A stretch of 61,909 nt of DNA, filler included, from Hausera hauseri (Eukaryota), in NCBI GenBank assembly GCA_046269625.1. It is 11 parts of 11 records of this genome, joined end to end, with 100 filler letters (N's around TTAATTAATTAA, not from the genome) between each part and the next. Parts side by side here need not be neighbours in the genome. Positions count along the whole stretch, not along the records: positions 1 to 8,208 come from JBJURY010729878.1; 10 more parts are not named here. One strand, written 5' to 3'. Both the position numbers and the translations under genes were made by a program. Below the pieces are notes generated by a model. It was not told the origin of the DNA. It saw only the letters and a program-made list of their open reading frames with translations, and searched no databases. Shown one piece after another: positions 1-57,451 of the stretch (position 1 is its first letter; each line of letters begins with the position of its first letter).

Positions 1-430
1 CTGCGAAGATCAAAACCAGTGGTATCGTAAAATTTTCGTGCTACTTCTTTGTATGTGCCAGTTGCCAACTAATACTGACGAATCACCTCTTCGTGATATA
101 AAATATCACGAACTCCGGCTAACCGTGTGATTGGACATTTGAAATGTTTACAACTATTTCGATAACATCGGCTCAGATTACCACTTTATCTGTAAATATT
201 TCCGCAACATTCCGGTAGAAATCTGGTGGATCCATTTGGTTGTTGATATTAACTTCAGTGAGACCCGTTATATGCGTATCAAAGTTGTTGATACGCTGTC
301 TAGGTGTCATAATTCCATACAGCAATGTATCTCCATGCAAGGTCATAATTGATGCTGTAATGGGCTGGAGCTGATTCCATTAGTCATAGGCCAAACGTAC
401 GGCTGCTATGACCATATCATGGTCTGTTAT
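1..430 (-). pseudogene. DEDDh (REX/ISG20-like) 3'-5' exonuclease-fold domain
   Basis: Read in frame through the stop at 380-382: QPITASIMTLHGDTLLYGIMTPRQRINNFDTHITGLTEVNINNQMDPPDFYRNVAEIFTDKVVI*AD..RLAGVRDI, which matches the REX4/ISG20 core pattern. Confidence 0.7.
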
Positions 431-2606
431 TTTGTCAATTCGCCTAAAGGGAATACTTTTGTATTTGATATAATCCGGCTCTAGGAGGTTAAAACATTTT
501 CCTTCCGGGAGGCTTGGACGAAATTTTTCATTTTTGATTACCTCCATAGCTAGTATTATTCGATTGGTGCCGGATCGGATTTTAAATGTTTTTGCATTGG
601 GGGATGAGTGATCAAAGGCTAGACCGTGTTCCGAATCCAAATTAATCAAGTCTTCTTTTATAGCCGTCTTTTTATCGGATGTTTTTATTTGTAATTGGCC
701 GATAAAGCAATAGAGGTTCATTGAGTGGAATCGTTCTGGTAGGATTAATATGTCAGACAAATAGAATGAGGTTGCTTTGGAAATCTGTAGAAGGGCGAGA
801 GAGCGATTCTCTATACTGTAACCTTTTAGGTTGTTTGGAATTTGTTGCGCCTGAGGATAATTGAGGCTTATCATATTGTCATTGTGGACTATGTGATACT
901 GATTGGATGGATTTGCGTTGATAATATGATTTTTAGCATTGTTGTGTAAATGTTTGGATCGATTGGTCGTTTGGATCTGGTGGAAAGTTGATGATGATAC
1001 TGTAATAGACAAAGTCAATGTTGTTTTATACACGATACTTAAACACAACACAACATTTATCATGCAAATCACTACGGTAATCGTTGTGGTTACACAAGAA
1101 TAGATTTTACGGTGAGCGGTAAATAGGTATTGTTTAATTATCTTTATTCTCAGGGTTTCGCAAACAGCAATCTCTGAAACTAGTTGTCAGCTGGGATTAT
1201 CCGTATCTAACGGATTCGTTAGATCACGCATATTGATTCGCACCAAGCTCCTTTTACGTTTGCATCGTAACCGTATTGGTTTTATTGATATCACCATCAT
1301 CACTATAAGTACCAATGGAACTAATGACCCAAACGGGAATGCTTATACGCCGCTCGTGATGGCTTTTTCGTTGTTTTGTTTCTAATCATGTTAACCTTAT
1401 ATGATGGTTCTATTTTATTATTTTGGTTTGTGATTGCCGACATTACTTTGGTGGAAGTTATTGTATCATTTTCATCTAATAATTGTAAGATGACTGAGTA
1501 TCTCGCATGGGGGTCCAGCGCCGCGAACGGCACTACCAGATCGTCAGGTGTTATGACTCCCTTTGCTACTATTGTATCTTGTTTCTTACAACTGAATTTA
1601 ATTTTCACAAAATCAAGATCTGGTCTAACGGAAATAATTAGTGAAGTAGGGGCTGCCACGATGGTTACGTTATCCCATATGGAACGTTTTTGACGGTAAT
1701 AGGAAGCGTAAGGTTTAATTACAACAGTCATCACCCTCGTATTAGCTGAGGAGTGCACAATCGGTGTCGTGAGCTTTTCTTGTATATCATCATATTCTTT
1801 TTAATTTTTATATCGTATAAACATATTTGGTCCTTTTCGTTCTAGTGGATTCAAAAACTTACCGTTTTTCTTTCGAAACAAGGTATAATTGACATAGTAT
1901 ATTCTTCCTCGTGTAACCATACAACAAACTCGTTTACCTTTAATCCTGCTGATTCTGACTTCCGGAACTACTGTTTCTGTTAGCTTTATTGTTATTCGTC
2001 GAATACATTCTAATTGTACCATCGTTATAATCTCAATTCAGCTTCTCCCGCTCTTAAATCCCATTGGCCTTACAATTAGCTGGTTGAGTATTATTTCGTC
2101 TAATAGTTTCGTTCATTTGTTGTCTAGTAGGGATTACTATTGATCTATAAAATTTTGTTTTCTTGCTTTTATAATAATGCCCCTGCTTCTTAATAAGTGT
2201 AAGATATACAAAGTGGACACCTGAGCCTTGTACTATACACTGTGTCTGACTAGTCCCTGAGTGGAATAGACAATTATACTGTCGCTCATTGGGATGTCTT
2301 TTGTCATCATACCAAGGTATCAATTGTATCCCTATTATTTGTACTAGGGGCATTTGTTCTGGCATACTCCAGATCATCATTTTTCGACCTTTCTCTCAAT
2401 GTTATTTTATACTGTAGCGTTTTCATCAACATATCTTCTTTTATGGCCATTGTATGTCTCATTTTTGCTTGTTCAATTTCTTGATTAGTCATCTGTCCTA
2501 TCACCCCGGGAAATAAGAGGATAATAATTAATAATAGACCTTTCTTTAATTGATGAGGTTTATTTGTTGAGTCTACCTCCATCACTTTCTCATTAGTACT
2601 TCGCAC
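430..2606 (-). pseudogene. Post-integrase cargo: signal peptide, ectodomain, FN3-like domain, two hydrophobic segments and an IPNNLKG domain
   Basis: GLLLIIILLFPGVIG signal-like stretch. FN3-like VPFAALDPHARYSVILQL. TM ISIPVWVISS/LVLIVMMVISI followed by RCKRKK (across frameshifts). Second hydrophobic VVICMINVVLCLSIVY. QIPNNLKGYSIEN at 821-841 is shared with contig 8. Confidence 0.55.
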
Positions 2607-3700
2607 TAAATCTTTTCGCCTTTCCTTAATTCACTCTCCTTCGCGGCGGGTTTACATCTATTAACGTGGACCTTCAGAAAAGTGTTATTTTTCTTCAAAC
2701 AAATGTTTGGGAGGTTTACTTTTTCTACTTCGTATGGTCCTTTATATGGCTTATCCAATTTAGATGTTTTCCCCTTTTTAATTGTCGGTGAGTATAACAT
2801 TACTTGGTCACTTATCTTAATTTTTGGTTGTTTGGTCTTTTTATCATGGCACTTTTTATATTTCGATTTATAATCCTTTTGATTACATCCAACTGTTTTA
2901 TATGCCAACTGAAGGCGTTCCTGCATTAGCTGTTTATAGCCTTCTATTTCCATTAAGTGTGAAACTGGTTTCACATTAAAATCTAAATCGATTGGTAGTC
3001 TGGCCTCCCTTAAATATATTAGATAATAGGAGGTTTCTTTAGTAGCTTCATGGACTGATGTCCGATTCACAAAAACACATGCATTGATATATTCATCCCA
3101 ATCATCTTGTCTAGTGTTTACCACGTTTGTAATTTCCCTTTTAAATCTCCGATATACCTCTCGACCATTCCATTATTCTCTGGATGTCCAGGTGTGGATC
3201 GTAGTTTTAATATCTTTAGAATGTCATATAGATTGCATTACAGTTCCGGTGAGATTTGTTGCTTGATCAGTCAAAAGTATTCTCGGGCTCCATAATTAAA
3301 TACTATATTCTCCAAAAATTTCTTATCAATTGTATCCGCCTTCATATCAGCCATTGGTAGGGCAACAACCCATCGAGTGAAATAGTCAATAAAAACTAAG
3401 ATATATCTATTTCCATTCCGTGTTAGCGGTAATGGTTCCGTTATATCCATTGCGGTAAACTCGCATGGTGCTGGGGGATTGTCCCAAACTTTGAGGGGTG
3501 CCTTGTATTTTGATCCCGTGTTCTTCTGGGTAGCACATAATTTACAACTGTCGCACCATTCCTGTACATTTTTCGTCATTGTCGGCCAAAAGTATTTTCG
3601 TTTCAGTTTATTAAGCGTCTTACTGGCTGATTGGTGTCCTCCGAGTAGTCCATCATGGTATTGGGTCAACAGAACTGCTCTATTTTTCTTAGGAATTACT
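2606..3700 (-). pseudogene. Gypsy integrase with HHCC, DDE core and GPY/F domain
   Basis: HDGLLGGH..YFWPTM..CDSCKLC; AMDITEPLPLTRNGNRYILVFIDYFTRW; KLDKPYKGPYEV..VHVNRCKP. Confidence 0.93.
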
Positions 3701-3899
3701 AAGGCAGGTCCGTTTTGATGAATAAAATATAAAAATTCCTCTCTTCGTAAGCTTCACTGAATCGGGCCAAATGGCAGGTTAATTCTCTATTATCCGGTAT
3801 GGTTTTGTCCTTTATGTATTTCCGAATGGCCCTTATTTCAGCGTCTTCATTTTGATCCGCCTTAATTTTTTCTACGGATCCATCCATGCTTTATACGGC

Positions 3900-5200
3900 T
3901 GCAACTACTGCTTTTTCTATTTCCGGATTTATGGGTATTCTAGATAGATAATCCGCAATTCCTTTTCGCGATCCAGGTTTATACTGGAAATGAAGCGTAA
4001 AAGGCTGTAACTTTAGAGCCCATCGTAGAAATCTGCTATTCGGATTCTCATGGTGCTTTAGCCATTGGAGCTGTCTGTGATCTGTATAAATTAAAAGGGG
4101 TTTATTTTCACTGATACGGTGAAAATACTTCTAGAGCAAATATTACTGCTAATAGTGCTTTTTCTATCACCGCATATTTCTTCTGGTGTTTATTTAGTTT
4201 TCGTGAAGCATAAGCTATTGGGTGTTCCTTTCCGTCTTCCTCTTTTTGTGATAATACAGCTCCTACTCCGTAATCACTTACATCTGTTGTCACGATAAAT
4301 GGTTTGGTCATATCAGGATAAATCAATATGGGGGCCGTTAACAGTCTGTCTTTTAGATATTCAAAAGTTTTCTGACACTCATTCGTCCAGACAACTTTAT
4401 CTAGGTCTTCATATAATAGTTCGTACAGGGGTCTCGCAATTTTACTAAAATCTTTTATAAACCGTCGATAATAGTTTGCCAAACCTAAGAATCGACGTAA
4501 CTCCATAACTGTACCTGGCTTCGGAAAATCTCTTATTTTTCCTAAAAGCTTGTCCTGGTGTTTTACACCATGCCTGTCTACTCTATGTCGGAGGAAATCT
4601 ACTTCTGCTTGAGCAAGTGAACATTTCTTTGGATTTATCTTTAGACCCATTATTTCGCATCAGAGATCTTGTAGATCCCTTAGATGTTGAAAATTCGGTG
4701 ATGCTATTATTACACGTCAATATACACCATGGCATGCGGGGCATTTAATAGCAGTTCTGTTCCTCTCTGGAACGTTGGCGGACCGTTCTTCAGTGCAAAT
4801 GGCATGCTATTAAATTCCCATAGCCCTTCTCCGATTGAGAACGCCGTTCTTGGTTTATCTTCCTCTTTCACCTCCACTTGTCAGTAGCCTATTTGTAAAT
4901 CAATCGTTGAAAATATTGTTCATCCATGCAGTTTATCTAGTATTTCGTCAATTCTTGGTAACGGGTATGTATCCGTCTCCGTTATTTCGTTCAATGCTCT
5001 ATAGTCTATACAAAATCTCATGGTCCCATCCTTCTTGACCATTACCACTAGAGCTGTCCATGGGGAACAACTTGGTCGAATTATCTTGTTTTCTCATTTC
5101 TTTTTTTTCCTGCTTCCTATTTTTTATCGTATGCTAACCGATATGATCTTTTCTTGATTGGTTTATCTTGTCCATCCTTTAACTTAATGGTATGTTGTAT
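3900..5200 (-). pseudogene. Reverse transcriptase and RNase H (gypsy), frameshifted
   Basis: WEFNSMPFALKNGPPTFQR; MVYID (YIDD remnant); LRRFLGLANYYRRFIKDFSKIARPL; TDVSDYGVGAVLSQ; HPIAYASRKL. Confidence 0.92.
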
Positions 5201-5368
5201 TATTTTCATTGTACCAGATCATAATCATTTTGTGCAAATCGATTGTTATTTTTCTCCAGCAGCTCGATTAGCATCTTCTCTTCCTTAGTTAAGATTTCGC
5301 ATTTTTGTAATCTCTCATTCCAATTGATAGCTTTATTTCTATTTGGCTCCCTCTTCAGTTTTCTGTCA

Positions 5369-6103
5369 TTATTCTATTTTATCTACATCTAAAATTGTTG
5401 AGCAGATTTCTTTCGTTATTTCTTCAATGGTTGTTACTTTTCCTAGTCTAGTATCCTTTCGTAATCGTTTTTCCTTGTTTGGCGTATTAAAAAGTCGTAA
5501 ATGGACTTTTCCATCCCTTACTTTATCTATGTAAGGGGCGATTAAGACTTCATATTTTTCCATAACTTGTGGAAAGGGTTCAAAATGAATAACCTCCGGT
5601 AATGCTTGACTTTCTATTTTGCCGAGTACCACTATCTCGGATCGTGGTGGGATCGTGGTGTCTTTGGTTAGTGAAACCATTCCCTCGTTACGGTCTTCAC
5701 CGAACGTCTTGAGTTGACACGTTCTCACATCTATGTAAGCATTTTCTAATTGGCTTAATATATCACATCCGATTAAAATTTCATTAGTCAAATTATCTGC
5801 TATCCTTTTAGTATGTTTTATAATTTGTTTGCCAATTCTAATTTTGTCATCTAAGACCATCTTAATTTCCTCTTCTGTGCCGAATGCTCCTACATTTATT
5901 AATGTAGTTGTCGGTCTTTGTAATTTCCTTTTTAACTCCTTTGGCAATTGGCTCTTTCCTATTATCATTGTTGTAGATCCTGTGTCCAGTAAGGCCGTCA
6001 TTGGATATCCATTCACCTCTATTTCTACTTCTGGTCTTATAGGTGGTTGCCGTTCATTTTTATCATCAGTTTTATATGTAGATTCGCGTTTGTAGGGTAT
6101 CAA
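5369..6103 (-). pseudogene. Retrotransposon aspartic protease plus PR-RT spacer domain
   Basis: VNGYPMTALLDTGSTT catalytic motif; ILIGCDIL; TTIPPRSEIVV spacer typical of gypsy Pol. Confidence 0.9.
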
Positions 6104-8208
6104 ATTTTCATCAAAACTTTGTTTTCTGTTGCATCTGATGTATAGAGTACAGTCCTGTTAGTAGTACATATCGAGAAGCTGAGGGATTCACTAATGGTTA
6201 CTCGTATAACTGTCCATGATATTCCTCTGGGATCTAAGTGAGGTAAGTCTGTTACTAACTTTTGTCTATATTTAGGCTCTCGGGACCCCAGTGCCAGTTG
6301 TTTAATGCCAGTCATTCGTTTACGTTTTGCTTTTACTTTTACTTGATCACGTTCGATATCGTCATCATCAGGTATGCTATATGGGGAATCTTTTCCATCT
6401 TTTCTTTGTAATATCTTTCTTTTCCATTGTGCGTCGTGGTTTGCTAGGAAACAACTGGCTACTGCCGGTATTACGGCTATTAGAATTTTCCATGAGCATC
6501 CTACTGCTGCATGTATTCCATATGCTTTACCTAGTGCCGTAAATATTGTCCGTAAGGCGCTAATAATAAAATATATAGCTTGAAAACCGGAAGCTGCTTG
6601 GCCAAAATATAAGAACTTTTCCCACATCTTCTCCATAATATTTCTTGTTACTTTATTTAGATAATCTTTGCGCATTAAATTTTCCCATTGTGATAATCCT
6701 TCACCATCCCACATTACTCGCCTTGTTAATTCTGTTATAACGCGTTGTCTTTGTTGTAGGAATAACAACATTCGTCGATAGTCTTCTAAATTTTGTGTAT
6801 CAATTCCTCCCTGTGATATTCCTGTTAACGGTTCAAATTTCTGATTCCTTTTCAAATTAATCAAACTTAATTTCTCCGGTTTGGGCACTGGTTCTCTCTT
6901 TGGTATTCTAATCCATTTATCGTTATAGATCTTAAACATTGGCGACATTAAAAGTGCAATTGTATAGTGGAGTGGGCTTTACATTAATATCGAATAATAT
7001 CCTAGTCACCGGCATAACATATCGCGCTTCTGAGTGATAAACTACAAGTAATTCCATTGTACATTCGTCTACTGGCCTGATTGATACTTCCGCCTTCTTG
7101 CATTCTATTGTTATAAGTACTTCGCCCATCACTTCCGATAATCCCATATCCAAAGGGCATTACTGGCGCTACCATGTCAGGATTCGTTATTACCAATGCC
7201 ATTTTATTACGTATTATTTCATAGTTTAGTTTACATTCATTCATTATTGTTTCTCGATATAAACCTCTAATTTCTTTTCTCACGTAATTAATTAGAAAAT
7301 CGATCTTATCGAAATATTGTTAGCTTTGTCTTTCTTATCTATTTTGATTTTCGCACCGGGTATTTCTTTTCTCAATAAGAAGATACACTTATAGTTGGTT
7401 TTTGATATTTCTTCGCTGCACTTATTTGTTACTCCCGTGATTTTGAATCGCATCATTTCTTCTGGGCTTTCCGAATATACAATTGTAGCCACTTCTGTCA
7501 TCTTGGCTTCCTTTGTTCCTTCTTTATATGTCGCTGTTTCTTTTTCTGCCGTTTTCCCTACTGTTTTATTAAACTTTCCTTCTTTTAGCAGCGTCAGATG
7601 ACATTTACTTGCTATGGTTTCCCATGTCATTTTCGACTCCAGTATCACATTCACCATTATCATATTCACACACTCATAGTCGTCATCAATTTCGTTTGTG
7701 AGTCGAATAATCCTTCATATTCATTCAACTGGATATGATAGTCTTCTATGGCTACCGTTCTAGGCGCAATGGTACCTCCAACATCGTAGTCCACTCCTTT
7801 ACAGGTACCTTCCATTGTTTTATCTATTCTTCCTGCCCTGAAAATTCTGGTATATTTTATTCTGTTTCGAACTTCCGGTATGTGCGCGTTTTGTATAGTC
7901 ATGATGCCAATCTTAAAAGCATCCTGACATTCTGCTCGTGATATGATTATCGGTTCGAAAGGTGTTATGGCTGAATTTCCAGAATAACAGGTACAATTAA
8001 AGAGGAAAAATGATCTCTTTACATAACATTCCCTGATTTTCGCTTTTATAAATTCGGATTCTTGGTATACCCAGTATGTAAGACCACTTGTCGTTGTTAA
8101 CTGTTCTGGGTCGGCTTCTGGACACTTCTCCAAATTAACTAGAGAGTACTTTTGTCCTTCGCTAGGTTTAGAACAATCGTAAGTCACTATACCCACGGCT
8201 TTTGGCAT
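6100..8208 (-). pseudogene. Chuvirus-type (class III, gB-like) envelope glycoprotein, frameshifted
   Basis: N-terminus GIVTYDCSKP..YSLVNLEKC..VYQ..IRECYVKRSFFLFNC. Middle GEVLITIECKKAEVSIRPVDECTMELLVVYHSEARYVMPVTRIL. C-terminus WEKFLYFGQAASGFQAIYFII..AYGIHAAVGCSWKILIAV. These match the pattern I recall for chuviral G and its retroelement-captured copies. Confidence 0.8.
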
Positions 8209-17404: not shown

Positions 17405-17504
17405 NNNNNNNNNNNNNNNNNNNNNNNNNNNNNNNNNNNNNNNNNNNNTTAATTAATTAANNNNNNNNNNNNNNNNNNNNNNNNNNNNNNNNNNNNNNNN
17501 NNNN

Positions 17505-18257
17505 GATTCTGGATATCCGGACAAAGTCACCTATTTTATATTTTTTATTATTTTGTTTCTTGTTATTTCTGCTGCTGCTGCACAATATTAAGTCATTTGT
17601 AACATCAACCGGTTTTAACCCATTGATACCTCCATGTTCTGAATGATTGTAAGCATGGGTGATTTTCGGTAAAACATCTATACATTTCTTATTTCCCTGT
17701 TTCGTAAAATATTTATTAAGCCGACTTCGTAAAGTACGATTTAACCGTTCAACTAATGCAGCTTTATACTGTGCAAATACCGAATAATGATTAATTTTAT
17801 ATTTCTCTAATATAGACTGTACGGAACTATTAAAAAATTCTTTACCCAGATCCGTTTGCAATGATTTTGGTTGTTCCCTTTCCAACATATGCATTACCGC
17901 CTCACGCATATCTTTTTCTAATTTTGATTTTACTGGAACCATTGGCCAAAGTGAATTTATTCCCGCAACGCGGTATTTACGTGTCATAAACCGTTTTCTC
18001 ATCGGCCGGTTTAGACTGTATGCCAATTGCTTTCTCAACCAATTTGCTACCTGTGCCTTTGTCGCATTTGCGGCTTTTGCAGATCTTGCAACTCCCGAGT
18101 AACCTACTGCTCTTCGGGGTTGAATCATAACTTTTTCATCGACTGCATCATCACCATAATCATTATCCGAAACACAACAAATACGTCGAATGTTTAAATT
18201 ACCATTTGGTAACGATGGTGTAGAACCCATAAAATATTTGTTTTTCTGATTAAGCAT
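17505..18257 (-). pseudogene. Polinton rve integrase with an internal deletion
   Basis: WLRKQLAYSLNRPMRKRF; LQTDLGKEFFN; KAALVERLNRTLR; YKIGDFVRIS. The QMD..DVFSRF segment present in contig 6 is missing. Confidence 0.9.
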
Positions 18258-18261
18258 TTGT

Positions 18262-18492
18262 TTATATTAATAAATTATCAGCCATTGCATCGATCGCTTT
18301 GGCTGCTGCATACCCACCCGCTGATGTTGCTGCTCTAAGGGCTGCAGCTTTTTCAGCTGCAGCCAAAATGGGTATTAATGCTGCCAATACAAAATAATTT
18401 CCATCTTGATTAATTGACCTGTTCCTTGTTAACATTGTCCCTATAGAGCGTATCAATTCTGGATTATTTGCCGCTATTCGTGCAAGTGACAT
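18262..18492 (-). CDS. Small adenovirus pX-like virion core protein
   Basis: NQDGNYFVLAALIPILAAA resembles adenovirus pX GGFLPALIPIIAAA; lies between the ATPase and integrase genes. Confidence 0.55.
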   Translation of the reverse strand: MSLARIAANNPELIRSIGTMLTRNRSINQDGNYFVLAALIPILAAAEKAAALRAATSAGGYAAAKAIDAMADNLLI

Positions 18493-25589: not shown

Positions 25590-27080
25590 GGGTCGGATTG
25601 AATTGTGATTTTTTATTTTTGGATTTAGGGTGATTAATATTAAAGAACCCTAACAAGATACATTTTTCACGTTAAAAAAAGAAACTTACTGAAACAAAGA
25701 TATTAATTCACCCAAATTTTTCAAAAGAATTTTTCATCCATACTGACTCTTCCGGCACCGGTCTAGGGGCAGTCCTTGATCAAAAGAGGGCACGTGAGGA
25801 ATTCGATCATGAAATAATGTACACTAGTCCAGTATTAACTGATGCAGAAAGGAATTATGCAGTAATGGAGAAGAAAATGGTTGCAGTAATTTTCACAGTA
25901 AGATCACAATTCTTATAGATCATGCACCACTGCAATTCGTAACTAAGAAGGATCCATTTGTAAGATTAAAACGTTGGTAATTACATTCTCAGCCTTATGA
26001 TATCACATTTGTCTATAGACCTAGAAAAAAATAATATAGTTGCATTAGGAAGAAGAAATTAACAACAATTTGGGTCCGTACATTTAAGAAATCTTGCGTC
26101 AATGGTAAAAGAATTTACAAGAGAAACAATGGACGAGGAATTGAAACAAATAGCTGATCAGCAGAAATGCGATCCGGAAGTAAAATTTATCCGTAAGTAT
26201 GCTAGAACTAAAAATATGACTGAAGCTTCTCAAGATTTGAAAAAAACATTTGCTAATGCAAGGAGCAAGGTATCTGGTAGTTAATGTTGTATTGAGATAC
26301 TTATATAAAGACCGGCAACTAATAGTAATTCCGGAAAATAGGAAGCATGAGATACTGAAGCAAGAGTATAACAAGAGTATAAGTAGCAAAGAAAACTCTT
26401 AGGAGAATTAACAGAAAATGTTATCGGAGAACAATGAAAGAAGATGTCGAAAACTGGTGCCAAAAGTGTAACATATTTGAAAGAAGAAGAAGTAGAGGAT
26501 ATAAGTATAAACCACCATTCTGTCCAATCCCAGCCACATCCACTCCGATGGAATTTGTAACTATAAACATGGCAGGCCCTTTGCTTAAAACCACAAGCGG
26601 AAATAAGTATATTATGGTAATAGTGGATTACCCTACGAGGTACCCGGAAGCATTTGCAATGTCCAATATGACGGCTGACTCGTTCTTCGTAGGCGAAATT
26701 ATATTTCGATACGGAGTCCCAAGGAAATAACTAACGAATGAAGGAAAATCTTTGTTAATAAGATGTTCCAAGAGATGTGTAATATTTTTCAATAACTAAG
26801 ATGTAAACTGCTGCATACCATCCACAGACATATGGAGTGGTAGAAAAAAATGAATGCCACAATGTTAAATGTATTATCCATCGTAACAAATGAAAGACAC
26901 GACAATTGTGACCAATTTGTTCCAGCTTTCATGTTCGCCATAAGAAACAAAGCAACAATGCAACCACCTTTTGCATTCATGTTTGGACTGGAACCGTTAT
27001 TGGCAACGGATTTGCAAGGATGCCAGTCAACGTTTTGTGTATCAGGAAGAAGTAGAAAATATTTGAATATCAAGAGATAA
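25590..27080 (+). mobile_element. Heavily decayed gypsy RNase H-integrase fragment
   Basis: FFIHTDSSGTGLGAVLDQ; DAERNYAVMEK; PMEFVTINMAGPLLKTTSGNKYIMVIVDYPTRYPEAF; TAAYHPQTYGVVEK. Confidence 0.85.
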
Positions 27081-29867: not shown

Positions 29868-31012
29868 ATGGATGCATGGTATAACTTATTTTGTCCCAGT
29901 TTACTGAATATTTCATTAACGGTTCTTTATAATTGCTGTAGTGCTAACAAAAACGACATCATCGACTACATCGACGATAACGACGGGCGACGTGTGGTGC
30001 GATCCGCGTCATCACGTCGGGTATACTGGCGTCGACAAACTGGCAAAGACTGTTAAACAGATTCGACAACAAACCGAACGTTGGCTCAGGAAACAGTTAG
30101 CATACAGCCTAAACAAACCTATAAGAAGGCGGTTTCCAACTCATGCATATCGTGCTGCCGGTATAAATAACGTATTGCAAATGGATCATGTGGAAATGAT
30201 TCCGTACGCCAGAATCAACGATGGGTATCGGTACGTGCTGATATTTATTGATGTGTTTAGTCGTTTTTCATGTGCAATTGCTGCGAAACCTAAACCCGAT
30301 AAAAAGATTGCCAAGGCTGTTTAGATACTGATACAACAACAACAGCAGCTAAAGCATTTACAAATGGATTTGGGTAAGGAATTCTACAACGCTCACATTT
30401 CAGCAGTCTTAAAACGCTTTGGCGTAAACCACTACTCGGTGTTTTTCTAATACAAGGCTGCACTCGTCTAACAATTTAATCGAACATTGCGTGGTCGCCT
30501 AAACAAATTCTTTACGAAGCAAGGCAACAAACGCTGAGTAGATGTACAGACGGTTATTATTCATGCATACAATCATTCGACACACCGTGAAATCAACGGA
30601 ATGAGCTTGGTTGACGTAATCGATGATTTAAACATGTGGCTTTATCACAAACGAACAAAACTACAGGCAATTAAATGCCAAAAATATAAAATCGGAGCTT
30701 ACGCACTTATTTCCAAAATAAGTACAAAGCCACTCGTTAAGAATTTTAATCAGAACTACGGCGACGAGGTTTTCCGCATTTCGAAAATCAACACAAAACA
30801 AACACATATCAGACGTTTTAGAGGATGAAAACGGTGAAGAAATACGCGGTAAATTCTACAAACAGGAATTGCAGGTACTGCCCGAGAAACTCGATGCTTA
30901 TCGTATTCAGAAAATTCTACGTTCACCTGTCAAAGGTTCAAATAAACATTATCTCATCAAGTGGCACGGATGCAATGCACCGAGTTGGATTTTTTCATCA
31001 CAGATTCAATGA
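29868..31012 (+). pseudogene. Polinton integrase with C-terminal chromodomain
   Basis: LQMDHVEM..IDVFSRF; LQMDLGKEFYN; GEEIRGKFYKQEL; YRIQKILR..HYLIKWHG..SWI. Confidence 0.92.
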
Positions 31013-33083: not shown

Positions 33084-36000
33084 CATGTATTGCGTCTCGC
33101 GCATACATGTAAAGGATCATTGTCATCATCAGATGGAGAAATATTACAACGCAGGACGAAAGGACACGTAATAGTGTCCAGCGTGTAATATTCCAATCCT
33201 CTGTCCGTACCCCGATTTTTATGAAATGCACAGGCATCATCTTGGTCCGTTTACACGATCTAAGAAGATGATCATGAATTTGCATTGCTCCGTATACCCA
33301 CGGTACTTTAATAGTACAACAGTGCATGACTTTGATAATTGTCATAGTAGAATGGAGAGTACTATGGCGTCACAGTGGTGCACGGTAAACCGGCCTATGT
33401 TTGTTCCGGTTGTTCTATAGTTGAAGCACAAATCAACTATGAACAATTTTATAATAAGCACAAGGACCACTTGAACCAATTTCAGCGGTCCAAAAAGCAA
33501 ATAGTAATAAGCATTGCCCCACGTACCCACACTACTGCAATAATAAAGTGCACACGTTAGTGGTTGTCATAGTTCAGTGGAGCAGTACTATGGCACCACA
33601 ATGAACGGGCCTACGTTTGTCCCGGTTGTTCGATAGTTGAAACTCAAATCAACTATGAACAATTTTATAATCTGTACAAGGACCACTTAAACCAGTTTAA
33701 GCGGACTCAAATACAAGCAGCATGCCATCAACAACAACCAGTAGGAAATATCAGGTCTTAGCCAGTCTTGACTACTTAATCGGAAGCTGTACAGAGCAGC
33801 AGCAGCAACAGGAGCAGCAGGAATAGCATCATCAGCAACAACAACAAGAACAGGAGGTCAATATTCCCATTACAGTCAAGTACGATCTGAACAGATCGTA
33901 CGTAGACATAAATGTGAACATGTCGGCGAAAACAACAACTCAACTGAGACATTTTCCCCAAAATGTGCTTAACTGGTTGGAATCCGAAGTGGAGAAATTC
34001 AAACATCATTGCAAAATGCAATATTGCAGAATTCGAAAATTTGGAAGGTGACAGGAAACAATGGTACCTGTCACATCGAGCCAAACTGTATTCCGACTAT
34101 TTTGTTGCCGATGTAGGCGAAAAGCTCGACGAAAAAATCGCCAAATATCCCGAAAAGGGTAGTTGCTTGCAAATTATAAAAATTGTCACTTTCGGCTTTA
34201 TCATAACAAGGTCGAGTAATATAATTTACCTGTTCGGACGATCATTCATACCGACACCTACAGCTCTAAAGCACTGTTATGCGGTATTGAATGTAAAAAT
34301 ACCGACGACGACGAATACTGTTTCATTTACAGTATTCTGGCCGTATTAAAATATGACAAAGTAGGTAGACATAGTGCATATCGTCCAAATCAGTATCCGA
34401 AGTATTTTTCCGAATTGGACTTTGATGAATGTTGGATGTCGATGAAAATGAAAACCATTCCGACTTTTGAGCGGCGTAACCGGACGCTGTTAATTAACGT
34501 GTTCCGGTACAACACAATCGTAGAAATACCGGAAGACGAAGAGATTTACAAGAACCCCCATGTGGGCATAATCTATAGAAGTCGGAACCCGAATGGACGC
34601 CCAATAAATTTGTTGTTGTTAGAGCAAAAGGAGGCGGAAATTTTTCATTATGTGGCCGCGACAAATTTGTACAGACTGTTGAACATAGAACATGACCAGT
34701 TCATCGAAAAGCGTATACCTTGTAAATGGTGTCCTGTATATCTGCATGGATTCGGGTCAGAAACAACATGGGAGAAACATGTGACACTATGCAGACAAAA
34801 TTCATCGGAAACAACAACATATATCATGCTCTTCAAAAAGGAACTAAGGTTCACTGATTGGTGAAAACAAGCTGTTTGGCATATGTAGTATATGCCGATA
34901 TCGAAGCTATCTTATCAAGACACAACATATATGACCAAAAACATGTTCCAACCGCTGTCGGTATGTTGGTAGTCTCAATAAAAGCTGCAGGCCACCAACA
35001 ATATTATGTTTTTCATGGCTAGAACTGCGTACGCGATTTCCTGCACCAGTTGGAAACAATAATAGAAACGGAAATCGCACCTCGGTACAGTAGAGATAGC
35101 AATAAACCTTTTATGTGGACAGATGAAGCTGAGCGTCTGACGTTTGCAGTCACAGATGAATGTTACCTGTGCCACAAAATATTACCGTTTGATGCACAGG
35201 AACAGCTCAAACCGGATCACGACCATTTTACCGGTCGATATCTCGGAGCCGCATGTAATTCATGCAATTTGGCAAGGTGTGTGCAGCCATTCCTACTTGT
35301 GGTATTCTATAACTTCAGGGGTTATGATTGTCACCATATTTTTAAATGGGCCTTAAACAGATTTCTGCACTGAAAACTATCCATAATTCCGACTATGATG
35401 GAGAAATACCTGTCACTGTCTGATCGTATTAACCCGTTACAGGTACACTTTCTCGATTCATTGAAATTTCTCAACGAATCTCTGGTAAAGCTGGTAAATG
35501 CCTTGCCAGATGTGCCGCTAATATTGAATCAGTTCTCCACACGTATTGCACGTAGCAAAGGCATATTCCCGTATGACATTGAGATATTGTACGAGCGACT
35601 CCAGACGACAGACGATTTACCACCGCAATGGCTCGGTATCATAGAAAAAGAATATCACGAAGCACAGTCGTTTTGGGCAGAGCTCGGCTGCAGAAACCTG
35701 TTGGAATAAATGCTTTAGTATCTGAAATTGGACGTGTACTGTTAGCCGATGTGTTTCAGACATTTCGAGCTAAAGCGTTGGAAGAAGATAGGCCGGAGCC
35801 ACACAACTTTTACTCAATACCCGGAATGAGTTGGGCATCAGCTATAATGTCACTGGATCGGGATATCCAGCCATTGCAAGACCCGGAAATGTACCGAATA
35901 TTTGATGTTGGTATTTGTGGTGGCATGACATTTGTCAACAAGCATCACGTAACCAGTGATGATACGGCATCACTGTTGTATATCGACATTAATAGCCTAT

Positions 36001-37161
36001 ACGGCTGGGCGCTTTAATAACCCTTGCCGTAAGGTTCGTTGGAATGATTAGTCGACAAACAGGACCTGGACGACATAATGGAAAATCTGCCGAGAGCAGA
36101 TACAACAGAAAACAGCTCAATCGGGTACCCGATGGAAGTCGATCTCGTGGTACCAGATGAGCTGAATAATTTTCTGGATGAATTACCGGTCGCACTAATT
36201 ATCCAATGTCCGCTGGGCTCAAAGGTGAAGAAGCTGCTTATGACGCATGAACCCAAGCAAAATTACATAGTTCATTGGCGTCTGTTGCAATTTTACATCG
36301 ATCAATCCGATTAGCACAGGCTTTAACATTCAAGCCGTGCATCAGTCGGAATTCGGAAAAACGAGCTGCAGTTTGTACGAAGTTTGAAAAAGTCTATTAA
36401 AAACTGAAAAACAAATCTTTCTACGGAAAAACAGTAGAGAATCTGAAAAAGCGGCTCAATGAACGCCTATGCAATAGCGAAAAGCCGTTGGTCACATACA
36501 CGAGCAAGGCACAATTCAGGCAATCAATGTACATTGCCGATGGTTTGGTTTCCGTGCTTTTAAACAGGAAATAAGTCGTACTAAACCAGCCAAGTTATAT
36601 AGGACAAGTGGTATTTGACCTGAGCAAGTTGCGGATGTATAAGCTGCAGTATCGCGATTTGGTACGTTACCGGCAAATGTTTGGTGGATGCAAGATAAAT
36701 ATAATTGCCGGTGACACAGACAGTTTTTTCTTGGAACTGAAACACGTCAGTCGCGAACAACTAGTGCGGCAAATGATGTTAGAAGGATTACTGGATACGT
36801 CCAATTACCCACAGAATCATTCATTGTACAGCAGCTCCATCACAAACAAAATCGGTTGTTTCAAGGATGAAAGTGAAGGTCGGCCTCAGTATCCAGAGTG
36901 AATATTTCAACGGCCAAAATGTTTAAGCCTTTTAACTGACTGTGGACCGAAATTTCGCACCAAAGGAGTTCAGTTGGAGCAGACGGAAATAAACCACGGT
37001 GATTATCGCCTTATCTATGAAGAAGAAGGACAATCAAAGGCTGTTGTGTCTCAAACGATCATCCGATCAATTGAGCAGCAGCTGTATGTGGTGATCAATG
37101 CAAAAGTCGCTTTATCATGTGGAATAAGAGTTTGGCGTACCGACATTGGCGTTTTGAATAA
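33084..37161 (+). pseudogene. Protein-primed DNA polymerase B with an endonuclease-VII-like zinc insertion, heavily frameshifted
   Basis: YADIEAIL; CYLC..DHDHFTGRYLGAACNSCN; FYNFRGYDCH; FLDSLKFL; KGIFPY; YIDINSLYGWAL; KNKSFYGKTVENL; GDTDSFF; IGCFKDE; RPKC. Confidence 0.93.
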
Positions 37162-38709: not shown

Positions 38710-39179
38710 TCAATACAAAGCCGTAGACATCTTTTGTAAGCATAATGCGGTCAATGATCACGATACGGACATCTAATATTGTCAGGTACCATCGCCAGCG
38801 AGCTGTTATATGTTGAATGTGTCGTCATTCGCAACTCGGGAAAGTGTGAATGTAGTTGCGTAAACTTCTGACCGTCAATTTGATCTTTAATGTAAAATAT
38901 TGTATTTTTAATGTTAAAACGATTATAAATCTCTCCCATAATACATGTCACACAGAAAATTGAATTACCTTTATACCTAAGACGTCCCTGATGATGTTGA
39001 AAGAGAAATACGTCTGTAAATTTCGCCTTTTCCATCAGGTAATTCCACACAACACCAGGCTTGAATACGTACACAATCGGTTTGAAAATGTTACCGACGT
39101 CCATAATGCATAATTATTTTATTATGTACCGGGCATTATCAACTTGGAAAGCTTCAATATCTGTAAATCCTGTAGCCAT
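38710..39179 (-). pseudogene. DEDD-like nuclease-fold accessory protein
   Basis: MATGFTDIEAFQV..YIIK*LCI..YVFKPG..W..HHQG..FYIKD..CPYRDH. Shows the D-x-E ExoI-like motif and the FKPP/HG pattern I associate with Polinton accessory ORFs. Confidence 0.55.
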
Positions 39180-39329
39180 TACTTATCATGTACAAAATCA
39201 TTTTTTGCTTATAACACAAACAAAACAAATAACTATTATTATTATTATTATTATTACCACAATCATTAAACATAGGCGGTTTTGTCCATATCACCAAACC
39301 CAAATTCTTTGCATTCATTTTGTGTTGGT

Positions 39330-39735
39330 TCCTTGACACAAAACAATCCCCTCGTTCCGGTGGCATTACATTGAATTCAGCCGCTTCACATCGAAGAAAT
39401 ACAATTTGTGCTATTGCATTGCCTTTCGCAATATCATACAATAATCCGGATTGATTTTCCAGCAACATCTTAATTTCACCACGGAAGTCTGAATCAATGA
39501 CACCGCCCACAACTGTCAGTCCGAGCTCTGCCAGTCCGCTTTTCGATAAAAGTTGGCCGTAGTAACCGGGTGGAATCGCCAATCGAATCTCAGTCGTTAT
39601 GCATTTAATTGTGATATCCGAAATTGTCGTATTAACATTGGAAAACACATCGTAGCCGGCACTGTTTGCTGTAACACGTCTTGGTACAACTGCATTTTTG
39701 TCTGTTAAGATAATCTTTACATTATTCATTATCAT
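39330..39735 (-). pseudogene. dut: dUTPase with a damaged C-terminal motif V
   Basis: SAGYDV; IPPGYYGQLLSKSGLA; GGVIDSDFRGEIK; GNAIAQIVF; ERG. Confidence 0.93.
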
Positions 39736-40619
39736 TATTCTTATACGTATACCAGTATTAAAATTACACGTATATTTATACTCGTTAATTGGGTTAATNN
39801 NNNNNNNNNNNNNNNNNNNNNNNNNNNNNNNNNNNNNNNNNNTTAATTAATTAANNNNNNNNNNNNNNNNNNNNNNNNNNNNNNNNNNNNNNNNNNNNGA
39901 TTTGTTTATTTACTGGAACTATTAACTTCCCTGTCCTTTTTGAACGGAAGATTGAGGTGAGGTAATTTCCTAACTTAGGGTTTTCCCAAACATATGTATT
40001 CTCGAAAACTTCTCTTGCTGGGGCAACTTTGCTGTAAAACATAGCTTCTTTAATTATTTTCTTACTACAATATTCTGTGGATCTTCTTTTCTAAAAGTAC
40101 GTTGACTTCAGTTATTCTATATTCAATAACTTTCTTCTTTACGGACTTTACCTTCTGAGAGGTACTTGGTTCGATTTGTTGATTTTCATATTTTAGCTTA
40201 TCTTTTCTTTCTTTCTTGAATAAGTAGTTGTAAATAGATAGCGTTTTCTTGGGCTGGGGCTTTTCTTCTAATTTATGTTTCTTTATTATTGTTTCTGGCC
40301 TCCATTCTTTTGTGTATTTTTCTAGAGACTTTGGCGCTACATGGAGTATTTTGTTTCCTTTTCCGATCGCTTGTAGGTCACTTTTATCTTCCTCTTGTCC
40401 TTCCATAGGTTTTTGCACTGTGGTCGTCATATTATGCTTGCATGTTGACTGGACAGTTCTGATCGGATAGTAAGGTTTGATATTTCTTCTATATTTTATA
40501 TCTATTTGCTCGGGCTTCAAGGAACTACGTAAATTGTATATGGGGTTTCTAAGGTCCCATTCGTGTTCCAGTTTAATGATTTATAAATTTCTTGCTGATA
40601 TTTGCAGCGTTGGCTAGCC

Positions 40620-41060
40620 GTTAGAAGTCTTTTAATTCTCATTGCTTCGATCATTAACTTGAAGAAGGCTTCTGGAGCGGTCGGTCGATTTGTTCCTTGT
40701 ACAGTTTTCTCCATTCGTTCCTGGATTATTGGGTGGGTGGCCATTTCCCTAATTCCGGCAATTTTTGCATCGGACATTTCTAGTAACACGATTTATCGTT
40801 GTACGTTATATCATGTCAGCATACAGCAGTAAAGACAATAATTCAATTTTGAACGGACTTGTTTAATGTCTTTTCCTCTTATGAGCTGCTCTTTTATTAA
40901 ACCGGTCACTTCTGCATACGATTCTTGGACATGTTTATGGGGTTTATGACTGCAGAGCATATTTCGACCCCATCCCCCTCTCTAATAGATACTTCTATGG
41001 GTATTTCATGTCCATCATCTCCTATGACACAATTTATCGCGATGATTCTTACGTTGCAAC
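40620..41060 (-). pseudogene. DEDDh exonuclease-fold domain
   Basis: RIIAINCVIGDDGHEIPIEVSIREGDGVEICSAVINP..VTGLIKEQLIRGKDIKQVRSKL..LT*YNVQR*IVLL..KIAGIREM; homologous to 1-430. Confidence 0.7.
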
Positions 41061-41149
41061 CATCTTGGATTAGCCTATATGACTGACGGTGTTCATCCTT
41101 TTCTACCTCGTTTAAAATTTGTTCAAATTCTAGGGCTGGCAACCGTCGA

Positions 41150-43300
41150 TTACAATCTTCTCTGCTACTCTAAATTCTAGGCCGTAGTCGATACGTTCTA
41201 AACCTGTCTGTTTATTTTAAATGTACTGAACCGGTATTGACGTCCTTCGTTGGAGTTCAAAGGTTGGTTCTATATATTATAATATAGTTCTCCGTCGGTT
41301 AAGTGGGTATATATGTCTTGAATTTTGACTAGTAAGTTTCGGATTAATTTCTTTAAGGAATATGCTTTAGCCTGATTATCTTCGCGCATTGCGTAAAGGA
41401 AGACTGTGCTATTCTCCTCCGTAATGCCTTTTAGATTATTGGGGATTTCGCTGATTTTTGAAATTTCGATATATGTTTTTGCTTGTAGGGCTTCGGTTAT
41501 CATCCTGTAGAGACTTTGAATTTGGAATAAATACTGTAGTTTGTTCCTGCAAATATTCGTTGATGCTAATTCGGCTATCCATACTTACAATTCTGAAAAA
41601 TAGAAAATAAGGGTCAATTCTATAACAAAGTATTGTTCTAAATCTGAACCAATTCTTTGTTTGATGGTGGAATAACCCGACCTGTAATAGTCAAGTTACT
41701 CCATCATTGATTTTATCCTGTGGTACTATTACCCTTAACTCCCTCTTGGTGATTTTATGACGCTTATTACAGCAGTTTTGGTAATAAATCGGAGAAACGC
41801 AATGAAAGTTACGAGAGCAAACGCTGACGATCTAATGATCGATATTATTGACAAAGTTGTCCATTTAGTTAGGTTTTTTGTTTTAGCAGTAGTCATATTT
41901 TTGCCTTCCGTTTCTTCGTTAATGAGTGGTTTCGTTAAGCCAATTTCGTTTAGGGTCCGTACCGTAAACGTTCTACTTTGTTTGTTCTCTGCACCTATTT
42001 GTATTACGTAGTCTGTTTTGGATTTCAAGTAGGTACATTTGATTTGATAGATACCTTTTGTCAGCGTTACTTTTTGATTATTATGTAATGTTTGGCAGCT
42101 TATTTCTACATCGTAGTTAAGTGCTTCCTTCACAACGAATGTTATTTCATGCTGTTATGTCCAATATTTTATAGGAATCATTTCTAAATCCTTCTGCGGT
42201 AACCCACTTGTCTGGAGGATTTAGATGGAAGTTGAAGTAGTCATATTCCTTCTTGTAATCGTAATTCTGCTTGTTGTCATTTCAGATGGAATTCTTCAAA
42301 TTGGATTTTCCAATTGATAACTTCCTAAGTAAATACTCGACTGGTTCGATAGAATTTCATATAAGTCTATCCGAATTCTATATTTATTTCTCCGAGTTAA
42401 CTTACAACACTTATTCGGCCTTTCGGCGTCGATTTGACAGTACTGTTGATTATGGGCTGCTTTGTCCTCTCTTGTGAATTGAACTGTGATTACTAGTCTC
42501 TTAATTAACCGTCCTTTTTTGTTTATTTGGGTACAGTTGTCCTTTGGATTTTACGTTATACTGGCTATATTTTCTTATAGAATTCGTTTTAATGGGTCTA
42601 TGGACTGAAGCATATCTTCTAGCTCGATATTAAGGTAGTCTCTATAAGTTCGTGGTATAATTAAGTGTGAATCCAGGTTTATTTCGGCGTGTACCTTATT
42701 ACAGTTAGGCAGATATGAACGATAACTGAGAGCATAAGAGTGTCCGTACTCTACGCTGCAACAAATTGTATCGTCATCTGGTTCAAATTTACTATCAGTC
42801 TCTGCTTGGTTAAATAGGTTGTTAAATAGTATATGGATTTGCCCCTCATATGGTCCTGGTATCTTAAACCCGACACATAAGGCCTCTGGCAAAAAATAAT
42901 CTAATTTTATTGCTCGTAAAAATTTTTCGTCTTTTTGTTCTGATTTGCGTCCTGGAGTTTCTTCCCTTGGTGGTGAAGTTTTTAAAGCGATTTTCCAGAT
43001 TCCATATATATTGCTCAACGAAGTTTCATCGACCCACCATTGGGCGTTAGACTTAGGCGTTAGGACAGCAATTAACGATAAGGCTACTATTATCTGTGCG
43101 TAAGGTACCGGTCTTGTGACAACTGACGAGGTCTTGTTTTCTCGCGGTCTTAGATTGTAGTGTTTAGCTGGTCTTATATCTGTTTTAACTACTCTTTGGA
43201 TTGATACGACTTCCGCTTTTCCGTTTTTGTTAACATAGACCGTGGTTGACGTTGTGCGGATGATTTCATATGATCCTCTTCCGGTACGTGTTAATTTCAA
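41150..43300 (-). pseudogene. Integrase C-terminus in frame with signal peptide, ectodomain, FN3-like domain, TM segments and IPNNLKG domain
   Basis: ORF 42575-43300 runs from GSYEII..VSIQRV into YAQIIVALSLIAVLTPKSNA|QWW. FN3-like LKSKTDYVIQIGAEN. TM WTTLSIISII..ALVTFIAFL. EIPNNLKGITEEN at 41426-41446. Confidence 0.6.
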
Positions 43301-46047
43301 GGACGTACATTTTTGCGACTGGGAAATGTATATAAACCAAATTTCCCTTTTTCAGATCACGGGGTTTAATCTTTTTATCATATTGTTTTTTAAATAGTTC
43401 CTGGTATTCGAGTGATAATGTTTTTGCAACTTCTCAACACTTTTGCAATCTTGTCTGTAAGACTTTGGCAAAATTTTGCTCTAGATCTTCGAGGTTATTT
43501 TTGTACGGCGTCATTCCTAGATCTGTTAGTAAGATCGCTTCTCGGCGTACATCATAAAGAACGGTGTAAACCCTGTTGCTGGATGTGGAGTTGTATTAAT
43601 CGCAAACTGTGTCCCTTCTAGGAATTCGTCCCAATCCTTCTGGTCTTTGGCCACTAATCTTGACAGTATACGAATGATTGTTGTATTCATTTGTTCGACC
43701 ATTCAGTTACATTGTAGTGGTACGCGGTAGTGGTTAATCGTTCGATTTCGAATATCTTAGTAATTTTTTCGAATAATTTACTTGTGAAGTTCCTTCCTCT
43801 ATCCATTAGGGTTTGTTCTGGTGGTCCATATCTGCAGATAATTTTCTTTATCACTGCATCGGCTAAAGTTTCTGCCTTTTGATCTAATAGTGACACCAGC
43901 TTGACGAAATGCGTTAATCGATCCACGCATGTTAGAATATATCTGTTATTTTTGTGAGTTTTAGGCAAAGGTCCCACTATGTCCATAGACATAGCTTGCA
44001 TGGGTCTATCTGGTACGTTTATGTGTTTTAGTTCTGCTACGTACCCTTTCGTTTTCCTCTGCTTTGTCGCGCAAACTTCGTAAGCACTACCAAATTCTTT
44101 ACATCAATATAAATGCTTAGCCAATAGTATTTATTTAATATCCTTTCCAAGGTTTTCTTCCAAGACATGTGTCTAGCTAAATATGAATAATGTTCGGCCA
44201 TGAGTACTTCGACACGTAATCCTTTGGGGAAAACTATTAGTTTTCTCCATTTTCGTTCATAATATGGGATATTATTTTGGTTCGATGCGCAACATTTATG
44301 TCCGTGTTTCTGCAGGTGCTTCTTCAGTTGTCGTACTTTGGTCATTTCGCCGTTTTGTGCAAACTCAACAATTTGCAGAATAATCTTATCTTTAGCTTGT
44401 TTTGCGTGATCCCTATCGTTTTATCCAGGGTTAAAATCTTTTGTCGTTCAATTATTTGTTCGATCTGCGTTTTCTTTACCGTGGTGATCCCACTGGTTTT
44501 TGTCTTTAACCTTGATAGTGCGTAGGCGTCGACGTGGTTATTACCTGGTTTGTATTGAAATTCGAGATTTCTTCGATCCAATGGTTTAATATACATGTTG
44601 GGTTATTAACTCGTCCTTTCAATGTCGTGACTGCTTTGTGGTCGGTCACTATTATAATCTTTGTCCACAGGCATAGACAATAAAGTGTTGTAGTGCTTCC
44701 TTTACGGCTAACGTTTCTAATTCGGTAACCCAATAATTCTTTTCTGCTTTCTTTAGTGAGCGTCCTCCATAGGCTATTGGATGTTCTATTTCTTCATCTT
44801 CTCGTTTCTGAGCTTATTCGTAACTTATATCTTCTTTACTTGCATCTGTTTTAATGATGAATGGTAAGTTAAATCAGGGTATTTCCGAACTGGTTCGTTT
44901 GTCAAAAGTTCCTTCATTTCGTCGAATGCTTTTTGCTCCACTTCTGTCCATNNNNNNNNNNNNNNNNNNNNNNNNNNNNNNNNNNNNNNNNNNNNTTAAT
45001 TAATTAANNNNNNNNNNNNNNNNNNNNNNNNNNNNNNNNNNNNNNNNNNNNTTGGACAATAATGTAACAATTTCTGATAGTGAATTATTAGACAAATCGG
45101 AATTTTATGAAACGCATTCGGACCAATTCCTCATATTAAATCAAATATTATGTATGCCGATAAGAAACAACAATAAACAAACGACTAATACTCCATATCA
45201 AATTGAAGAAGAGCTGATCAATAAAACTATGCATAAAAAACATTGTCAAAATTCTTCAGGGCAATTACTGATTGATACGAACACCACTTTTAATCGCAAT
45301 TTGGCAGTCATTTGTGATTTGGATATTCCATCCGATGCCCATTCTTGTACTCATACGATTATACCCGATGATCCCTACGACGATTTCATTTAAAACCATC
45401 CGAGGACAACGAGCCATAACGTTGCCTCACTGTACGTATCGGAACTTTCCAACAAGAAAGAAACACTTTCCGAAGATGAGACCAGTTTGGTTGCCGATGA
45501 CTACTGTAACACGTTACCAAATTCCATATTTCGATGAACACCACATTCACCAGCACCGACACATTCACAAACGAATACTTATTTTTCATTACCTATACTG
45601 TCATAATCCGGAACGAAACGATCACCGGATTTGGATGGAGTTTGCCATCTGTTGAAAAAGATGGATTCGGACTTGGAGAAAATTCAACAAGACGCCTTTA
45701 TGATTATTAATATTGACGATCTCTATTCGGATTCAGTGGCACCGTTTGAAGCGGAAAACCATTCACGAATTGGCGATAGTTGGGACGATATTCCTTTTAT
45801 TGATGATGATGCATGTTATACCGATTCCTTCTATGGTTATTCGAATTATAAGGTGTGGTTAATTAAACATCCACGACTTTCTAAATTTAATGACATATAC
45901 GGAGCACCCGAACAGTCTGCGATAAACATTGGCCATCAAAGATTGGTTTTGGCGACTGCCCCCTCGGCTGTGCGACCAGAACATTATCTGATCGAAAACC
46001 ATGGCGAGTCCGTGATCCGTGCGCCACAACAAGCCTCTGGCATCACT

Positions 46048-53515: not shown

Positions 53516-53790
53516 ACAATTAAGAAATATTCTGAACTACTTCAGTCATATTGCATATAGATGAGCGGTATGTGAATGTATGCAGCTGCAAATTTTCACT
53601 ATCAGTTATTACGGTTAACAACTGATTTATAATGATTACATTGATTCAAAAGTAAAGTATTGAATAGTTTTGAAACATTTACGATAATGATTAGATGTTA
53701 TTTATCGTTGGTTTAGTAGCGTCGTTCGTGAATATGGGTTCGAATTTCAGACGTGCTAGTTTTCTCTACTCTGCATACTTTTCCAAAGTA

Positions 53791-57407: not shown

Positions 57408-57451
57408 CCTGCGCCAGAAGGTGCCATACATCTGGCGGAATTGAGTTTTTT
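57408..57451 (-). promoter_or_regulatory. Gag-Pol -1 frameshift signal
   Basis: A AAA AAC (57445-57451) followed by the stem CGCCAGA..TCTGGCG. The -1 frame reads into MAPSGAG and the protease. Confidence 0.75.

Follow-up and report, generated by a model that had tools for sequence, protein, structure and literature searches.

A probable decayed Burro-like Ty3/gypsy element in Hausera hauseri with a gB-type env ahead of the protease and a predicted fibronectin type III membrane protein after the integrase

The window is a 61,909-nucleotide stretch of Hausera hauseri DNA made up of contigs joined by N spacers, and the element described here occupies the minus strand of the contig at positions 1..8208. 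Position 8208 is the contig end, so gag and the 5′ LTR lie out of view. This edge falls inside env, where relatives have the end of the env internal signal sequence (residue 385 of P0003), while the opposite edge, position 1, falls inside a downstream coding region. The visible features are as follows, in the order in which they are read.

6400..8208, minus strand: class III (gB / Monjiviricetes G-type) env, from PF24664 matches, collinear tblastn matches to relatives, and a hydrophobic segment at 6492-6442
6100..6399, minus strand: linker from env to protease, Gag absent; env and protease differ in frame here
5369..6157, minus strand: aspartic protease and following beta-rich region (PF00077, E 8.5e-11; DTG at 5986)
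3795..5141, minus strand: reverse transcriptase (RT) and RNase H, interrupted by stop codons and frame changes, from Pfam, tblastn, and RT identity
2606..3753, minus strand: integrase (H2C2 zinc finger, core, and C-terminal part), broken (PF17921, E 1.4e-20; PF00665, E 1.6e-5)
2490..2540, minus strand: predicted post-integrase internal signal peptide (hydropathy peak 2.33; same position in 11 of 12 relatives)
1860..2037, minus strand: possible first fibronectin type III (FN3)-like repeat, weak (relatives-only profile E 0.2, fifth of 699 pieces)
1420..1710, minus strand: predicted FN3 domain, the C-terminal part of the ectodomain, from an AlphaFold (AF2) model, Foldseek, VIA, and the relatives-only profile
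1283..1333, minus strand: predicted transmembrane anchor, then basic residues (hydropathy peak 2.63; translation)
1..1186, minus strand: downstream coding region, coding-like, with a hydrophobic segment at 1081-1031; contig depth in run X1 continues over it

Within the contig, the visible part of env starts where its internal signal sequence ends and runs as far as two hydrophobic segments close to the C terminus; it is distributed over five pieces in differing frames. Searches by tblastn with intact relatives (P0002, P0003, P0004, P0130, and others) recover these five pieces as collinear between 8208 and 6400, at 17-52% identity per piece. Three minus-strand pieces match the Pfam family PF24664 (Monjiviricetes_fusion): 8208-7669 (E 4e-15, profile positions 19-196 of 653), 7319-7005 (E 7e-4, positions 318-361 of 653), and 6978-6103 (E 1e-26, positions 430-608 of 653). 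The matches stand in profile order along the minus strand. The piece 7714-7295 has no Pfam match, and a PDB sequence search with an env profile returned no fusion protein. On sequence grounds, the gene is best read as a class III, gB-type env located directly upstream of pol on the same strand. The ~2.1 kb of G coding sequence described in an earlier note on this DNA is real, as the ordered PF24664 pieces attest, but it is not one ORF, since four frame changes interrupt it.

The closest relatives of this env are parts of retroelement polyproteins. A length-unbiased HMMER search with a 292-residue env piece against 1.84 billion cluster representatives gave 128 matches. The best is a 203-residue fragment with 78% identity, and the next are long proteins with 27-37% identity (E 1e-30 to 4e-14). 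Stand-alone G-like proteins of ~650 residues, which we infer to be chuviral G, appear from E 2e-8 or worse with 19-28% identity. The earlier label "chuvirus-type" thus holds at the level of the Pfam family (PF24664), while the best relatives are retroelement envs. The parallel drawn with chuviral G capture by mosquito BEL/Pao elements does not fit, the nearest relatives being gypsy polyproteins.

A Pfam scan of 17 of the HMMER matches (14 from the top 15 plus three distant ones) finds env followed by a protease in one ORF in 10 of the 14 top matches, the other four ending in or just after env; none of the three distant matches carries a protease. A second search, limited to proteins of 1651-5256 residues and hence able to find only fused forms, gave 13 matches, all of which combine PF24664 with a protease family. 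The nearest relatives are single-ORF polyproteins of 2,600–4,800 residues with the order Gag–(ubiquitin-like, Bcl-2)–Env–PR–RT–RH–IN, where PR, RH, and IN denote protease, RNase H, and integrase. The single polyprotein suggested earlier is therefore a reality in the relatives, where env and protease share one ORF. Ten out of 15 long proteins show CCHC knuckles on the N-terminal side of env. Further matches include a Ty3 capsid and Bcl-2 in P0136, a ubiquitin/SUMO-like domain (PF11976) and ankyrin in P0137, Bcl-2 in P0004, and ankyrin in P0132, with several of these Gag and accessory-domain matches falling below Pfam cut-offs. A word-based search for homologs of the env piece in longer proteins gave no match, and locus scans of viral contigs (with the env piece and P0004) and metagenome contigs (with P0001) found none.

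A quick tree was built from 64 rows, namely the window env and 63 proteins, out of 144 collected, that passed selection on length and coverage. It places the window env in a 26-row group of polyprotein-type envs with an SH-aLRT of 94, below the tool's mark of 95. Among the other 25 members of this group, a protease motif follows env in 22, Pfam identifies a protease in P0136, and two end at env. The 38 rows outside the group are mostly stand-alone G proteins of ~650 residues, and none of them (0/38) has a protease motif.

Individual records add some variety to this picture. Several polyproteins (P0007, P0009, P0132, and P0138-P0143) carry up to seven retropepsin-like motifs each, some located after the integrase; a single such motif is seen in the window copy. 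The database entry for P0003, a complete env-pol-FN3 polyprotein of this animal-type element, names it a hypothetical protein from a Flavobacteriaceae MAG, probably through eukaryotic contamination of a bacterial bin. P0075 is a 797-residue G-type protein directly followed by an RNase H domain, which may be a gene-calling fusion or another layout.

A retropepsin ORF (6157-5372, minus strand) comes next after the env pieces and is followed by RT, RNase H, and integrase. This PR-RT-RH-IN order, together with a gypsy-type RT, identifies the element as Ty3/gypsy (Metaviridae). The RT core is 62-67% identical to those of 14 env-polyprotein relatives, which were chosen by env, and 44% identical to the other RT match in the window. 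Because the env tree and RT identity point to the same relatives, env and pol belong together, and env is best read as native to the element and not as a nested insertion. The layout proposed earlier, (gag)-env-PR-RT-RH-IN, is borne out from the env pieces through PF00077 to the integrase, with gag seen in the relatives.

The env-protease junction is compact. The distance from the env W-x-K-F motif to the protease DTG is 638 nt (about 213 codons), which lies within the range measured in relatives: in 13 of these, the first D[TS]G follows the env motif after 131-214 residues in the same ORF, although in P0002 the motif reached first is not that of the protease. As the earlier note had stated, no Gag lies between env and protease: the gap of ~300 nt from the hydrophobic end of env to the protease ORF is too short to hold one, and Pfam finds no Gag knuckle remnant there. 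No LTR-like repeat lies between env and protease, and the repeats in 5800-8208 are of 28 nt or less and look like chance, so that a check for the boundary repeats of a nested insertion came back empty over this interval. The 4-nt overlap of G and protease noted earlier has little meaning: it needs TTG at 6103 as a start, and the stop-to-stop overlap is 58 nt. The difference in frame between env and protease is most likely one of many decay breaks.

An alternative is that env and pol are separate ORFs coupled by programmed frameshifting or reinitiation at about 6100-6157. Frameshifts between gag and pol are common in gypsy elements, and here two frames overlap over 58 nt with the env-side piece stop-free up to the junction. 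Against this, every long relative with both domains has them in one ORF, and within single genes the window copy shifts frame at least nine further times. In addition, the junction has no canonical slippery heptamer by eye, and the protease frame has no ATG at the overlap. Coupling of this kind is therefore improbable. Less probable still is that env is an independent chuvirus-derived endogenous viral element (EVE), or part of a different element nested here, with a gypsy pol as its chance neighbor: PF24664 is a Monjiviricetes fusion protein family, Jingchuvirales glycoprotein EVEs are often near gypsy fragments according to the text of PMC10084718, the env and protease frames differ, and X1 depth is lower at the junction bin, but stand-alone G proteins match at E 2e-8 or worse against 1e-30 to 4e-14 for polyprotein envs, the env-protease spacing is as in relatives, env and RT share the same relatives, and no boundary repeats are found.

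This copy of the element is dead, because env lies in five collinear pieces and pol in six or more, with stops in the pol pieces; beyond the four frame changes of env, pol has at least five more and many stops. In run X1, which may be from the source organism and in which contig depth is not a copy number, 24,402 contigs align over the stretch, most of them <95% alike to it, with depth in 30 of 30 bins. This coverage fits a large, diverged repeat family. Depth is 1,002 at the env-protease junction bin versus 7,767 and 20,485 in the flanking bins; no X1 contig among those listed spans the junction in frame, and none of the 12 listed indel rows falls there. Separately, three X1 contigs link 7541 with position 78. 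The joint raised the idea of a further env copy at the 3′ end, for which tblastn and blastn find no self-similarity in the window; it may reflect a short match arising by chance, or a copy that has been rearranged.

The closest described counterparts are the Burro / GYPSM1 elements of dugesiid planarians. According to the text of PMC6431247, these are giant gypsy-like elements (>30 kb, with long LTRs) with a single ORF that runs in frame from gag through env to pol, env matches to mononegavirus fusion glycoproteins, and SUMO-like, Bcl-2, BIR, MATH, and ankyrin accessory domains; the same text reports decayed Burro-type fragments in Dugesia japonica. The Gag, CCHC, SUMO-like, Bcl-2, and ankyrin domains of the relatives found here are among those listed there for Burro. 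The window copy differs in being dead and compact, with one protease, a short env-PR linker, and no ankyrin seen; none of the SUMO-like, Bcl-2, or ankyrin domains occurs within its visible 8.2 kb. A further difference is a post-integrase module of signal peptide, FN3 ectodomain, and transmembrane (TM) helix, which is absent from the text of PMC6431247 (the figures were outside the search).

The same domain order and env class as in the window element characterize the GAG-ENV-POL "ancient errantiviruses" with HSV/gB-type ENV, which include Smed_errantivirus_1-6 of cysteine type C1a (PMC13524379). By eye, domain I of the window env shares a motif and cysteine pattern with Smed_errantivirus_1-6 (supplementary file 2) and is unlike the two bryozoan errantivirus envs examined (PMC13524379). 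The text of that survey differs in having no polyprotein or fibronectin and in discussing no second membrane protein. The earlier note set this order against the usual position of LTR-element env genes 3′ of pol. An env upstream of pol has precedents in PMC6431247 (section 7) and PMC13524379; publications on the env-before-protease layout go back to 2019, and a survey of it appeared in 2026.

Two other systems are less similar. Anakin BEL/Pao elements and Jingchuvirales glycoprotein EVEs of arthropods share the Pfam glycoprotein family but belong to another retroelement superfamily or to no element, as far as the text of PMC10084718 and PMC12440569 describes them, and their G-type proteins appear to be the distant ~650-residue matches found here. 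Bdelloid rotifer LTR elements are gypsy-like and carry small transmembrane ORFs or a DEDDy exonuclease downstream of pol, but the text of PMC5408684 gives them a separate ORF3 and an F-type env, and the exonuclease in the window is a by-eye guess. The contig is very probably a decayed, dead, and compact copy of a Burro-like (planarian-type) GAG-ENV-POL Ty3/gypsy element, "planarian-type" being a description of the element. A place within Burro proper is a more tentative assignment, drawn from domain lists and from the by-eye match to S. mediterranea env rows.

Downstream of the integrase, the window element has a module spanning 2540–1283 (minus strand), with a broken ectodomain. An in-frame arrangement of signal, ectodomain, TM helix, and tail follows the integrase in 11 of the 12 relatives that reach it, several of the 11 being close pairs; P0140 lacks the module. 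The relatives' ectodomains comprise 218-396 residues, with one or more FN3 domains, a Ser/Thr-rich stalk, and a common pattern of Cys and Leu-x-Pro-x-Thr-x-Tyr, and are followed by a tail of 29-112 residues after the transmembrane helix. A profile of 13 such domains matches neogenin, EphA2, and fibronectin in PDB (best E 1e-4).

The window domain at 1420-1710 is predicted to fold as a seven-stranded FN3 beta-sandwich. Its AlphaFold model has a pLDDT of 85.7 and was built with a family alignment, leaning on 12 other rows. Foldseek returns Tencon as the top match (E 4.1e-5, TM 0.67), and VIA-align to fibronectin EDB gives a Z of 10.5 with an rmsd of 2.2 over 85 residues. In a profile built from relatives only, the piece ranks third of 699 window pieces (E 0.014). 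Atlas comparison places FN3 clusters at 0.89-0.90, with low recognition, and Pfam fn3 does not match the piece. The module is divergent, the relatives being 13-24% identical to the window FN3 domain and variable in repeat number. The earlier note's expectation that the 3′ cargo adds a membrane protein unrelated to the glycoprotein is supported by this module.

Nothing relevant on FN3 modules of gypsy elements appears in the literature searched, though such a module may have been described before. Fibronectin, FN3, and signal peptide have no mentions in the text of PMC6431247 (Fig. 2A was outside the search); neither fibronectin, FN3, nor Burro is mentioned in the seven supplements of PMC13524379, and fibronectin is absent from its text.

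A second decayed gypsy element in the window (39899-44951, minus strand) shows the succession integrase, signal peptide (~43100), ectodomain, and TM helix (~41850), with two FN3-like repeats (42550 and 42154; relatives-only profile E 3e-8 and 0.009). Because the element is truncated on its upstream side, env lies outside the view.

The region beyond the module, 1186-1, has no match in database or profile searches, and its ORF 1186-383 has no usable atlas match. By eye, 460-100 (minus strand) and, in the second gypsy element, 41169-40520 (minus strand) resemble a DEDDh/REX4-type exonuclease. For both stretches, Pfam, NCBIfam, PDB, phage records, and a homolog search returned no DEDDh match. The model of 460-100 has low confidence (pLDDT 44.6) and no exonuclease match, and against a profile of five E. 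coli DEDDh sequences, scores this high were also reached by 526 of the shuffles. The exonuclease idea is only a lead, because every tool test failed. The downstream regions of the two gypsy elements have one short motif in common (E 4e-4); the match with 1186-383, which occurs in one of nine frame pairs, is equaled by 1 of 200 shuffles.

Elsewhere in the window, an uninterrupted 556-codon multi-pass ORF at 51866-53536 (minus strand) matches Otopetrin (E 2.9e-7) and is likely a host gene. The stretches 33948-36017, 39154-39846, 17457-18266, and 29920-30324 contain what we take by eye to be pieces of a protein-primed DNA polymerase, a dUTPase, and a Polinton-type integrase. Further decayed gypsy pol pieces without an env match lie at 25607-26718, 47568-50254, and 54485-59248.

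The domain order of the intact relatives suggests how such a protein could be made. Their single ORF would yield a membrane-threaded polyprotein whose N-terminal part is a cytosolic Gag (capsid and CCHC knuckles, often with ubiquitin-like and Bcl-2 domains). An internal signal would then send a gB-like class III fusogen of ~550 residues into the ER lumen, followed by a membrane anchor; if Pol is cytosolic, only one of the env hydrophobic segments would span the membrane, as assumed from gB. The protease or proteases, RT, RNase H, and integrase would stay cytosolic, and a second internal signal would lead into a lumenal ectodomain of 220-400 residues, a transmembrane helix, and a short tail. 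Host signal peptidase would free the glycoprotein N-termini, and the element's protease would cut the cytosolic parts. The chain would give rise to equimolar Gag, Env, Pol, and a further glycoprotein of type I, with both glycoproteins reaching the particle or cell surface. Flavivirus polyproteins undergo similar threading and cleavage. The density of N-glycan sequons per 100 residues is 1.65 in the FN3 ectodomain, 0.74 in Pol, and only 0.35 in the env ectodomain, and because of this last value sequon density says little about topology.

The earlier note had paired the two membrane proteins as a candidate fusogen and accessory protein, a pairing that we likewise infer. Herpesvirus gB needs gD, gH, and gL, and the entry mechanism of gB-carrying elements is stated to be unknown (PMC13524379). 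By comparison with gD/gH/gL, Burro-like elements could be endogenous viruses with two-glycoprotein entry, in which a gB-like fusogen is joined by a host-derived, FN3 receptor-like trigger; we regard this reading as tentative and its correctness as rather unlikely. For the FN3 protein itself, the role we favor is that of an attachment or trigger partner of gB-type entry, at odds that similarly make it a minority possibility. A complex prediction for the P0130 env ectodomain with its FN3 ectodomain, in which alignments were not used, scored 0.00, an outcome that speaks neither for nor against the pairing.

About as likely as an attachment or trigger role is one without a part in entry, in which the FN3-TM protein acts at the surface of the producer cell, through receptor interference or as an immune or cell-competition decoy. 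This is a serious contender, if short of an even prospect. Burro carries several host-modulating domains (Bcl-2, BIR, and ubiquitin-like) according to the text of PMC6431247, FN3 domains are a characteristic feature of host receptors, relatives differ strongly in the sequence of the module and vary in its repeat number, and many gB-type errantiviruses are reported without such a partner (PMC13524379). Conversely, the FN3 module is kept in 11 of 12 relatives while Bcl-2 and ankyrin matches are patchy, and the FN3 protein is made in frame with Env and Pol. A passenger role takes up the remainder beside these two.

The layout of the element is itself not new, and what merits follow-up is the conserved FN3 membrane protein at the C-terminal end alone. 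A polyprotein that alternates between cytosol and lumen would be unusual for an LTR element. If true, the two-glycoprotein reading would provide a concrete candidate for how gB-type errantiviruses enter cells. Burro elements are expressed in a tractable animal, as the text of PMC8532177 indicates, and the FN3 glycoprotein, which shares a reading frame with Env and Pol in 11 of 12 full-length relatives, is a candidate gB partner that can be tested.
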